DNA from: Escherichia coli
GTDB taxonomy: Bacteria; Pseudomonadota; Gammaproteobacteria; Enterobacterales; Enterobacteriaceae
DNA: 64,000 nt
Reading direction: 5' to 3' (one strand)
Assembly: GCF_024298765.1 (NCBI RefSeq)
Contig: NZ_CP101210.1
The position numbers and the translations under genes are program-made. Positions 523 to 30,253 of this stretch are shown here, piece after piece (within the stretch, counting starts at the first letter, position 1; the number at the start of each line of letters is the position of its first letter). Below the pieces are notes generated by a model, which ran no database searches, was not told where the DNA came from, and worked only from the letters and a program-made list of their open reading frames with translations.

Positions 523-538
523 GCGCAAACGTTTTCGT
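523..538 (+). promoter_or_regulatory. PurR operator (PUR box) at the purHD promoter
   Basis: gcgcaaacgttttcgt matches the PurR 16-bp palindromic consensus (aCGCAAACGTTTnCgT) about 110 bp upstream of purH. Confidence 0.6.
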
Positions 539-575
539 TACAATGCGGGCGAAAAATAAGGATGCCCCGTTAGGG

Positions 576-613
576 GCGTTAGCTGAGTTTTTCGCGAAAA
601 ATTCAGCTAACGC
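576..613. other. 38-bp near-perfect palindrome in the purH 5' leader
   Basis: gcgttagctgagtttttcgcgaaaaattcagctaacgc is self-complementary except one mirrored mismatch; lies between the PUR box and the purH ATG. Confidence 0.5.
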
Positions 614-645
614 TCTCTGTAATAGTCAAATCCAGGGGATTTACC

Positions 646-2235
646 ATGCAACAACGTCGTCCAGTCCGCCGCGCTCTGCTCAGTGTTTCTGACAAAGCCG
701 GTATCGTCGAATTCGCCCAGGCACTTTCCGCACGCGGTGTGGAGCTGCTGTCTACAGGGGGCACTGCCCGTCTGTTAGCAGAAAAAGGTCTGCCGGTAAC
801 CGAAGTTTCCGATTACACCGGTTTCCCAGAGATGATGGATGGACGCGTGAAGACCCTGCATCCGAAAGTACATGGTGGCATTCTGGGTCGTCGCGGCCAG
901 GACGATGCCATTATGGAAGAACATCAGATCCAGCCTATCGATATGGTGGTTGTTAACCTGTATCCGTTCGCCCAGACCGTTGCCCGTGAAGGTTGCTCGC
1001 TGGAAGATGCGGTTGAGAACATCGATATCGGCGGCCCAACGATGGTGCGCTCTGCCGCCAAGAACCATAAAGATGTCGCCATCGTGGTGAAGAGCAGCGA
1101 CTACGACGCCATTATTAAAGAGATAGATGCCAATGAAGGCTCCCTGACTCTGGAAACTCGCTTTGACCTTGCCATTAAAGCCTTCGAACACACCGCCGCC
1201 TACGACAGCATGATTGCCAACTACTTCGGCAGCATGGTTCCGGCTTACCACGGTGAAAGCAAAGAAGCCGCCGGTCGCTTCCCACGCACGCTGAACCTGA
1301 ACTTCATTAAGAAGCAGGATATGCGTTACGGCGAGAACAGCCACCAGCAGGCTGCCTTCTATATAGAAGAGAATGTGAAAGAAGCCTCCGTTGCTACCGC
1401 AACCCAGGTTCAGGGTAAAGCCCTCTCTTATAACAACATCGCCGATACCGATGCGGCGCTGGAGTGCGTGAAAGAGTTCGCCGAGCCGGCATGTGTGATT
1501 GTGAAGCACGCCAACCCTTGCGGCGTGGCTATCGGCCATTCCATTCTTGATGCTTACGATCGCGCGTACAAAACCGACCCAACCTCCGCGTTCGGCGGCA
1601 TTATCGCCTTTAACCGCGAGCTGGATGCGGAAACCGCACAGGCCATCATTTCTCGTCAGTTTGTTGAAGTGATCATTGCGCCATCCGCCAGCGAAGAAGC
1701 CCTGAAAATCACCGCCGCCAAACAGAACGTGCGCGTCCTGACCTGCGGTCAGTGGGGCGAGCGTGTTCCGGGCCTTGATTTCAAACGCGTGAACGGCGGT
1801 CTGCTGGTTCAGGATCGAGACCTGGGGATGGTCGGTGCAGAAGAACTGCGCGTCGTCACCAAACGTCAGCCGACCGAACAGGAACTGCGTGATGCGCTGT
1901 TCTGCTGGAAAGTGGCGAAGTTCGTGAAATCCAATGCTATCGTCTATGCCAAAAACAATATGACCATCGGGATTGGCGCGGGCCAGATGAGCCGCGTGTA
2001 CTCCGCAAAAATCGCCGGTATTAAAGCTGCCGATGAAGGTCTGGAAGTGAAAGGTTCCTCGATGGCTTCTGACGCGTTCTTCCCGTTCCGCGACGGTATT
2101 GATGCCGCCGCCGCTGCGGGCGTGACCTGCGTAATCCAGCCTGGCGGTTCTATCCGTGATGACGAAGTGATTGCCGCCGCCGACGAGCACGGTATTGCAA
2201 TGCTCTTCACCGACATGCGCCACTTCCGCCATTAA
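646..2235 (+). CDS. purH: Bifunctional AICAR transformylase / IMP cyclohydrolase
   Basis: 529-aa ORF; N-terminus [27 protein letters not shown] typical of PurH; followed 11 bp later by purD. Confidence 0.97.
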
Positions 2236-30024: not shown

Positions 30025-30189
30025 AAACCAACCTGTCAGAAGTATTCTACAAACATTTTCACCCCGCGATCGCGAGGCAAACCAAATCGAAACGCGTATT
30101 AGCTTTTCGGATTATACGCCCTCAACAGAGCCTGTCTCAGCAATGATTATGACAAAGAAAATCACTGATGAGCCAGGTTCTGGTACGAA

Positions 30190-30221
30190 AGCGTGCAAAA
30201 AGGGCATCAAATGATGCCCTT
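30190..30221 (-). terminator. Intrinsic terminator downstream of tufB
   Basis: Minus strand aaaagggcatcatttgatgccctttttgcacg. Confidence 0.7.
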
Positions 30222-30253
30222 TTAGTGCGCATTGCGTCAAATGTTATCGGCAA

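Follow-up and report, generated by a model that had tools for sequence, protein, structure and literature searches.

In a stretch of 64,000 nt of Escherichia coli DNA (contig NZ_CP101210.1; below, the window, in whose positions all coordinates are given), a near-perfect 38-bp palindrome lies shortly upstream of purH, the first gene of the purHD operon, next to a small GC hairpin. The question raised by this locus is what the palindrome does, and whether it acts as DNA or as RNA. An earlier note on this DNA had considered a protein-binding palindrome, a regulatory structure of the leader, and an insulator between the divergent rrnE promoters and purHD. The analyses described here make us highly confident that the palindrome belongs to a conserved RNA structure of two hairpins in the 5' leader of the purHD mRNA and is the shape which this structure takes in Escherichia. 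Judging from its sequence, we would class this leader as a structured cis-acting element of the 5' untranslated region (UTR).

The sequence and coordinates given in the earlier note (564-613, with the palindrome at 576-613 and the small hairpin at 564-577) proved exact on re-reading. The palindrome is formed on the plus strand by two inverted-repeat arms of 19 nt each (576-594 and 595-613), which are 95% complementary and separated by a spacer of 0 nt; the sole non-Watson-Crick position in the arms is G587/T602 (G:T). The small hairpin, GCCCC-GTTA-GGGGC, has G576 and C577 in common with the palindrome. Folded as RNA, 576-613 gives 17 bp closed by a CGCG loop; the energy is -22.5 kcal/mol (z = -6.6), and none of 200 shuffled sequences was equally stable, which bears out the long and stable hairpin that had been predicted. 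The 61 nt from 560 to 620 fold into both hairpins, with -29.7 kcal/mol for the plus strand versus -24.9 kcal/mol for the minus strand, in which the G·U pair is turned into an A·C mismatch. We named the two hairpins P1 and P2:

564-577, plus strand: P1, a GC hairpin (GCCCC / GUUA / GGGGC), whose 5' arm is always C-rich and whose 3' arm is always G-rich.
576-613, plus strand: P2, the 38-nt palindrome, 17 bp as RNA (576:613 to 592:597) with the loop CGCG at 593-596 and the wobble pair G587·U602.

One genome per species was scanned with the N-terminus of PurH, which yielded 80 loci. The comparative set consists of 34 leaders from the Enterobacteriaceae, the Erwiniaceae (Pantoea, Erwinia) and the Yersiniaceae (Yersinia, Serratia, Rahnella). 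The leaders of these 34 species follow a common plan, which reads from 5' to 3': PUR box, TACAAT, a short A-rich segment, P1, P2, UCU, a pyrimidine-rich or U-rich tail and the ribosome-binding site. P1 is a GC hairpin of 4-6 bp with a free loop, and P2 follows directly on its 3' side without a gap. The 14-bp base of P2 has the consensus GCGUUA(G/C/U)CUGA(G/A)UU ... AAUUCA(G/C)(C/G/A)UAACGC. Its apex measures 10-61 nt across species, is wholly different between genera and usually prolongs the helix; in Erwiniaceae and Yersiniaceae the helix is 30-40 bp long and is interrupted by internal loops. The apex of E. coli is the shortest; as it consists of no more than a few A-U pairs and the CGCG loop, the E. 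coli DNA takes on the look of a near-perfect palindrome.

A covariance model built from the leaders of the comparative set finds one copy in the window, with 77.7 bits, and matches the leader of Brenneria, which was outside the training set, with E = 9e-6. The earlier note had proposed to check conservation, and the plan is thus kept in 34 species of three families and, by the model, in Brenneria. With the filters off, the model found no significant match in the leaders of Mangrovibacter, Acerihabitans, Rosenbergiella, Morganellaceae, Budviciaceae and Hafniaceae, nor in those of Vibrionaceae, Aeromonas and Pasteurellaceae.

Whether P2 is conserved as RNA can be judged from the substitutions in its base, for which the following arms and pairs of the 34-species alignment are relevant:

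576-589, plus strand: 5' arm of the basal helix of P2, GCGUUAGCUGAGUU, 14 pairs on the alignment.
600-613, plus strand: 3' arm of the basal helix of P2, AAUUCAGCUAACGC, the partner of 576-589.
Pair 582:607: G-C in 21 species, C-G in 8, U·G in 3 and U-A in 2.
Pair 587:602: G·U in 18 species and A-U in 15.
Pair 583:606: C-G in E. coli, a mismatch in 18 of the 34 species.

Standard pairs occupy 91.4% of the alignment cells of these 14 basal pairs, versus 30-36% when the partners are slid. Six pairs are altered on both sides, and none of 500 shuffles reached the observed values; the altered pairs include 578:611 and 585:604, with changes from G-C to A-U. RNAalifold, run without guidance, predicts both P1 and P2 and places an internal loop at P2 pairs 8-10, which are also the hot-spot of mismatches. 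The secondary structure therefore shows the covariation by which a structured 5' UTR element is recognized. Cells of the G·U type outnumber those of the A·C type by 28 to 10, and this greater tolerance of G·U indicates that the plus-strand RNA is the form in which the structure is kept. The two arms of the P2 base have a mean identity of 86% to E. coli, as compared with 57% at the four-fold degenerate sites of the 198 adjoining purH codons, which argues that the leader sequence is under purifying selection.

The evidence for P1 is of the same kind. Folding of single sequences gave a P1-like hairpin of 4-6 bp adjoining P2 in ~30 of 35 species, with variable loops, and on a MAFFT alignment 89% of P1 is paired, three pairs being altered on both sides. 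The changes include CCUC:GAGG and CCCG:CGGG. The C-rich and G-rich arms of P1 are never swapped, whereas pairs of P2 do flip. Of the readings offered earlier, the leader regulatory structure is thus the best supported, as the hairpins lie 3' of the promoter and carry compensatory changes across families; a regulatory effect of the structure is itself putative.

Two further observations concern the apex and internal loops of P2. The apical inserts of Erwiniaceae and Yersiniaceae (loci L022-L038) contain recurrent small palindromes of the type CUCUAUAUAGAGAG or UUCUCUUUAUAUAGAUAGAAGAG, which occur twice in some Serratia. The motifs CUGA/UGAUG in Erwiniaceae could be read as a K-turn or C/D-box-like element; we rejected this reading because of the symmetry of the internal loop, which E. 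coli lacks.

The position of the hairpins relative to the purHD promoter determines whether they are transcribed. The control region contains the following features:

523-538, plus strand: PUR box (PurR operator), GCGCAAACGTTTTCGT, containing the RbsR/PurR core AAACGTTT at 527-534.
539-544, plus strand: predicted -10 hexamer TACAAT, directly 3' of the PUR box.
545-550, plus strand: GC-rich discriminator GCGGGC, between the -10 hexamer and the probable transcription start.
551-563, plus strand: unpaired A-rich 5' leader segment, GAAAAAUAAGGAU, with a GGA motif at 560-562; A-rich in most species.
646-2235, plus strand: purH coding sequence of 529 aa, annotated as purH in RefSeq E. coli genomes.

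The window opens with the 5' end of rrsE, which lies on the minus strand at ~1-28. Chromatin immunoprecipitation on microarrays (ChIP-chip) with PurR gives the motif ACGAAAACGTTTGCGC for purH-purD (PMC3159470). Nearly all of the enterobacterial loci examined have a PUR-like box before the leader, and TACAAT, or TAAAAT/TAGAAT, adjoins the PUR box in every locus. Because this arrangement is invariant, transcription of purHD would be expected to start at about 551, and both hairpins would therefore lie inside the purHD 5' UTR, in a leader of ~95 nt. The literature searched, including the accessible parts of PMC7815308, PMC10301672, PMC4782308 and PMC3159470, contained no mapped purH transcription start and no 3' end in the purH leader. 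The hairpins lie 3' of the PUR box, as previously described, and the purH ATG (646) is situated 32 nt past the palindrome, in agreement with the ~30 nt estimated before.

In other genera the discriminator reads GCC(A/C)CC or GCCCGC, and a GC-rich discriminator is a signature of stringently controlled promoters. A mini-ORF of three codons, AUG CCC CGU UAG (562-573), overlaps P1 and has GGA directly before its AUG. An AUG is present at this position in many Enterobacteriaceae and in Pantoea and is missing in several genera; a leader peptide encoded by this mini-ORF was rejected, as it has no counterpart in several species. The same holds for a leader peptide encoded by the ORF at 543-692, whose start falls inside the -10 hexamer.

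A quite different explanation is that the palindrome works as DNA, either as the operator of a dimeric regulator or as a cruciform that absorbs negative supercoiling from the divergent rrnE promoters. The E. coli palindrome is perfect enough to extrude (-14.8 kcal/mol per strand when 576-613 is folded as DNA) and has an AT-rich centre. Regulators other than PurR also act on purHD, namely RbsR, which represses it (PMC10912719, PMC5601083), and PhoP, which is given as a purHD regulator in a compiled table (PMC10100675). The divergent arrangement of rrn and purHD is conserved as well. Sub-threshold matches to the Rfam family 'Ysr197' (63-113 bits vs a gathering threshold of 167) fall on the rrn leader upstream of the 16S gene, at 150-384 of the window (minus strand), and also occur in loci L022, L026, L027, L029, L033, L040, L043, L054 and L067. 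This family probably models a fragment of the rRNA leader, and the presence of rrn-leader matches beside purH therefore means that rrn and purHD have kept their divergent order across Enterobacterales; a divergent rrn neighbour is also found in Pantoea sp. IMH.

The comparative data have nevertheless already largely refuted a role at the DNA level, judging from the sequences, and we consider it extremely unlikely. In other species the arms of P2 are 10-61 nt apart and contain mismatches and large apical inserts. Such variable spacing, together with the tolerance of G·U far more often than A·C, is incompatible with a dimeric DNA operator, which requires a fixed spacing, and the protein-binding palindrome of the earlier note is not supported. 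We defined an operator of the LacI family as a palindrome of ~16 bp with a central CG, the core AAACGTTT and half-sites abutting at a fixed spacing. For PurR and RbsR, this core falls within the PUR box, at 527-534; the palindrome does not contain it. No PhoP box with ≤3 mismatches was detected near the palindrome (413-737). Nor is the insulator supported. The palindrome is located in the transcribed part of the DNA, past the purH promoter in the direction of purH, rather than between the promoters, and the motif is missing from Xenorhabdus, Proteus, Budvicia and Acerihabitans, in which rrn and purHD are still divergent neighbours.

A dispersed palindromic repeat (REP/BIME, ERIC, MITE) or a mobile element was considered as well. 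Of 5426 complete E. coli genomes, 5419 contain the region; among these 5419, 5381 show an identity of at least 99% over the 66 nt that surround the palindrome. When used as a query, these 66 nt matched the purH locus only, with a median of two places per genome, which we read as the palindrome matching both strands of one locus. In the window there are no other copies of the half-site (0.02 matches expected by chance), in line with the single model match. Within the window, the search for half-site copies suggested in the earlier note thus leads back to this locus alone. As the element occupies a single locus in E. coli genomes, it is not a repeat of the REP, ERIC or MITE type.

Within the window, 576-613 is also the longest and most perfect of the tight palindromes; by our own arithmetic, at least 18 of 19 pairs would arise by chance with a probability of ~2e-10 per position, or ~1e-5 per window. 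The runner-up among the tight inverted repeats is located at 30188-30233 (AAAGCGTGCAAAAAGGGCATCA / TGATGCCCTTTTAGTGCGCATT); it has arms of 22 nt that are 82% complementary and a spacer of 2 nt, and may be a bidirectional terminator. The polymorphisms seen in Escherichia (G551A, G560A, C577T and C593T) affect unpaired or loop positions or give G·U pairs, which speaks for the structure. In divergent lineages (E. coli strains 2010C-3142 and 23CRST027; loci L001 and L002), ~20% of the positions differ at 440-505. From ~506 on, 2010C-3142 and 23CRST027 are identical to the window, so that the promoter and the leader are unchanged. The boundary is sharp and is due either to recombination or to selection.

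With the structure assigned to the RNA, the next question is whether it belongs to a known class. A scan against Rfam 15 yielded no family matching the E. coli leader or the leaders of 18 other species, the families searched including the ZTP, purine and PRPP riboswitches. The sole match in the E. coli leader, mir-725, reached 23.8 bits against a threshold of 76 and is attributable to chance. Motifs of the CsrA type are present at 558-564 (AAGGAUG) and 637-639 (GGA); a pair of CsrA sites would consist of two conserved GGA motifs, typically in loops, of which one overlaps the Shine-Dalgarno sequence. Reading of the sequences showed the upstream GGA in only ~13 of 34 species, so that a pair of CsrA sites is doubtful.

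The remaining explanations concern what follows P2, for which two more features are needed:

614-627, plus strand: pyrimidine-rich tail, UCUCUGUAAUAGUC; its UCU (614-616) can pair with GGG 573-575, which extends P2.
628-642, plus strand: ribosome-binding region, a weak hairpin AAAUCC/AGG/GGAUUU holding the Shine-Dalgarno sequence AGGGGA (634-639).

The UCU is invariant in 34 of 34 species, whereas its 3' neighbours vary. After the stem, the tail reads UCUCUGUAAU in E. coli and all other Enterobacteriaceae, and UCUUUAUUG, UCUUUUAUUG or UCUUAUUUAUUU in Serratia, Rahnella and Pantoea. A terminator scan called 576-613 on neither strand, and with this silence and the non-U tail of the Enterobacteriaceae a canonical intrinsic terminator, which needs a G+C-rich stem-loop with a run of U directly after it, was rejected. 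The statement that the region is not a canonical terminator therefore stands for the large hairpin and not for the small one, the minus strand of which is weakly terminator-like in a simple scan.

These tails bear on the possibility that the leader is a transcription attenuator, in which P2, extended by GGG:UCU, would terminate or pause transcription together with a U-rich tail, and P1 would be the competing structure. P1 and the extension of P2 are indeed mutually exclusive, the tails of Serratia, Rahnella and Pantoea, which are U-rich in Serratia and Pantoea, would suit this function, and the leader hairpins of Vibrio are likewise followed by UUUAUUUU. However, the tail of E. coli and all other Enterobacteriaceae and the result of the terminator scan speak against attenuation, only three of the pairs at the base of P2 are G-C, and no 3' end in the purH 5' UTR is given in the accessible supplements of a study that mapped 3' ends in E. 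coli (PMC7815308). We regard attenuation as improbable.

The same sequences invite a comparison with boxA. In this scheme a boxA at the 3' foot of P2, in the hairpin-boxA order of the rrn leader and of the boxB-boxA of lambda nut, would allow NusB/NusE to modulate elongation or translation of purHD, as at suhB. In Pantoea and Erwinia P2 is followed by CGCUCUUA, which we take to be identical to the boxA core of lambda. In Serratia and Rahnella it is followed by GCUCUUUA, which matches the first eight positions of the boxA consensus GYTCTTTAANA, in which positions 4 and 6 are critical; for the consensus, as for the suhB precedent, we relied on the accessible parts of PMC5725501. The E. coli sequence, by contrast, is weakly boxA-like (GCUCUCUGUAA, 612-622; 7 of 10 specified positions). 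It fails the consensus, as GCTCTCTGTAA has a C at position 6, which is one of the two substitutions that inactivate the suhB boxA according to the same source. Moreover, purH is not present in those of its supplementary files that were available, including the list of genes with a predicted boxA, and across the species GCUCU alone is invariant, the downstream half of the box not being conserved. A Nus-factor site is thus very unlikely.

The length of P2 raises yet another possibility, which is that it is a double-stranded RNA element for processing or stability, cut by RNase III or shielding the leader from RNase E, and that it sets the lifetime of the purHD mRNA. RNase III requires ~20-22 bp, or two turns. 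P2 of E. coli has 17 bp alone and attains ~22 bp only when extended by GGG:UCU or stacked on P1; the helices of Erwiniaceae and Yersiniaceae exceed this length. RNase III sites have internal loops, which the mismatch hot-spot at pairs 8-10 brings to mind. The purH leaders of Vibrionaceae, including Photobacterium, contain unrelated hairpins of 20-30 bp, suggesting that a long helix is itself the conserved requirement. On the other hand, the accessible tables of a survey of RNase III cleavage sites (PMC5371410) have no site at the hairpin, and the sole site listed for the purH-rrsE intergenic region (4207874) was given to rrsE by its authors. A protective hairpin at the 5' terminus is excluded by P1, which begins ~13 nt from the presumed 5' end, and neither the invariant UCU nor the fixed polarity of the C-rich and G-rich arms of P1 would be explained. 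We therefore hold a role in processing or stability to be rather unlikely, if less so than attenuation.

The reading that we favour, tentatively, is that the conserved structure acts in cis on the mRNA and sets or switches access to the ribosome-binding site; it is the most likely of the functions considered, and it is a model. The model involves four runs that would pair alternately: CCCC at 565-568, GGGG at 573-576, UCU(CU) at 614-618 and the GGGG of the Shine-Dalgarno sequence at 635-638. With P1 closed, the C-run would be locked away and the ribosome site would be weakly structured. With GGG paired to the invariant UCU, P2 would be extended and P1 open, and the freed C-run could mask the Shine-Dalgarno sequence. 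P2 would then serve as a rigid clamp that juxtaposes GGG and UCU. The balance between both states might be shifted by a signal (a protein, a metabolite or the kinetics of transcription), or the fold might set a fixed level of expression.

Several observations are consistent with this model. GGGG 635-638 is able to pair with CCCC 565-568 as an alternative, and the C-run is pairable with the G-run of the Shine-Dalgarno sequence in 90% of the cells, with a peak at the exact register; for GGG:UCU, pairing is possible in 97% of the cells. The fixed polarity of the P1 arms and the invariance of UCU beside its varying 3' neighbours agree with the model as well. For leaders as different in sequence as those of E. 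coli, Citrobacter, Kluyvera, Pantoea and Serratia, the lowest predicted energy belongs to the alternative fold, with an extended P2 and the C-run paired to the Shine-Dalgarno sequence.

Other points weigh against the model of ribosome access. Everything beyond the structure itself is deduced, the literature searched having yielded no start site, probing or expression data. The alternative pairings show no covariation because the G-, C- and pyrimidine runs are invariant; GGG:UCU pairs about as well one register off, and any C-run will seem to match a Shine-Dalgarno sequence that is rich in G. P1, at -10 kcal/mol, is a strong hairpin and is the first to form during transcription, so that the masked state may never be populated. 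Opening of the Shine-Dalgarno sequence costs ~1-9 kcal/mol, mostly 2-6, which is a modest masking of the kind seen in ordinary mRNAs. There are few conserved unpaired nucleotides for a ligand pocket, and the sequence of the P2 base (GCGUUA/UAACGC) is conserved beyond what a pure clamp would need, which hints at a sequence-specific partner.

A further pairing, outside the four runs, was noted in E. coli. The direct repeat GCGAAAAAT occurs at 549-557 and 594-602. Its 5' copy could in principle rival the apex of P2, as 549-556 is complementary to 588-595 at every position. This complementarity is specific to E. coli. Pairing of the 5' end by GCGAAAAA (549-556) with UUUUUCGC (588-595) was rejected, as the local hairpin outcompetes it.

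A bolder extension of the ribosome-access model is that P1-P2 is a signal-responsive riboregulator of the Enterobacterales, a second, PurR-independent control of purHD. It might sense the purine/folate state (build-up of ZMP/ZTP), either directly or through an RNA-binding protein at GCGUUA/UAACGC, and would take the place that the ZTP riboswitch has before purH in other phyla, with the Vibrionaceae hairpins as analogues. This proposal is speculative, and we would give it a low probability.

Lineages in which the covariance model finds no match have leader structures of their own. In Vibrionaceae, a different conserved long hairpin with the base AAAGGU(C/A)UUUACCAAA...UUUGGCAAAUAUCUUU and a variable apex is located ~30-130 nt before purH in Vibrio and Aliivibrio (L042, L044, L045, L048-L050, L055, L056, L059, L073), Photobacterium (L066, L070, L075, L079) and Grimontia (L053). 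This hairpin appears to covary (ACC:GGC in Vibrio, GGC:GCC in Grimontia), often has UUUAUUUU after it and matches no Rfam family. In the Morganellaceae Xenorhabdus, Photorhabdus and Proteus (L043, L046, L054), a hairpin AUGUUAUUG...CAAUAACAU ~40-100 nt before purH has a GUUA/UAAC core in common with the P2 base. Neither P1 nor the UCU tail accompanies it, and it obtains no score with the covariance model; on sequence resemblance it may be a diverged homologue. In Aeromonas (L052, L058, L060), a CCCC...GGGG hairpin ~60-90 nt before purH is directly followed by CUCUCUGUG, which contains the 8-mer CUCUCUGU found after P2 in E. coli (613-620). Set beside the Aeromonas layout, P2 looks like an insert placed between P1 and the tail.

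The palindrome itself has been part of the published K-12 sequence since 1989-1990. A covarying purHD leader RNA was not mentioned in the full-text literature that we searched, the purHD sequence papers of 1989-1990 lying outside its scope. Likewise, the accessible parts of reviews and regulon papers on E. coli (PMC3159470, PMC10100675, PMC10912719) describe control of purHD as transcriptional only, by PurR and RbsR, and mention no layer at the RNA level. The covarying, family-spanning nature of this leader thus appears to be uncatalogued, and it has no Rfam family. Of the two products of the purHD operon, PurH carries out the last two steps of IMP synthesis and PurD is GAR synthetase. A leader RNA kept through the whole history of Enterobacteriaceae, Erwiniaceae and Yersiniaceae implies an uncharacterised post-transcriptional layer in the best-studied bacterium. 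If the fold is responsive, it would show how enteric bacteria tune the consumption of AICAR/ZMP without a ZTP riboswitch, and it is only in this case that the leader would be of high interest. If it is static, it would be a well-defined natural structural clamp that shapes the translation-initiation region. In either case the structure is a caution for engineers who swap or keep the native purH leader.

How does the purHD leader compare with known systems? It resembles the operators of PurR and RbsR in being palindromic and located in the purHD control region, and the CGTTA/TAACG of its arms resembles the CGTTT/AAACG half-sites of the PUR box. Unlike in these operators, the half-sites of the palindrome are everted and stand at varying distances from each other, and the actual operator is found 40 bp upstream. 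The ZTP riboswitch commonly precedes purH elsewhere (PMC2864571). The purHD leader differs from this riboswitch (pfl; RF01750) in its architecture, which has no conserved junction or pseudoknot, and neither E. coli nor the 18 other loci gave a match to its model. As in the rrn leader and lambda nut (boxB plus boxA), the hairpin of purHD is directly followed by (C)GCUCU(U), and the leader is physically located beside an rrn leader; in contrast to them, the E. coli purHD sequence departs from the boxA consensus at key positions, and part of the 'box' is inside the stem.

The hairpins in the leaders of pnp and rnc are 5' UTR helices that are processed by RNase III. At purH, unlike at these genes, no RNase III cleavage is reported in the accessible tables of PMC5371410, and P2 of E. 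coli has 17 bp. What purHD shares with pnp and rnc is a 5' UTR with a long helix of mostly perfect pairing, the length of which is kept more than the sequence of its apex.

In the pyrC and pyrD leaders of E. coli and Salmonella, a 5' hairpin masks the Shine-Dalgarno sequence and thereby exerts translational control over genes of nucleotide biosynthesis. These leaders switch by choice of the start nucleotide and use a small hairpin, whereas nothing indicates alternative start sites at purHD, where two conserved hairpins, one of them long, precede the ribosome site. Like pyrC and pyrD, purHD has a short leader on an mRNA for nucleotide biosynthesis that is also under repression of the PurR type, with a C-rich 5' segment that can pair with the Shine-Dalgarno sequence, an arrangement in which no ligand pocket is needed.

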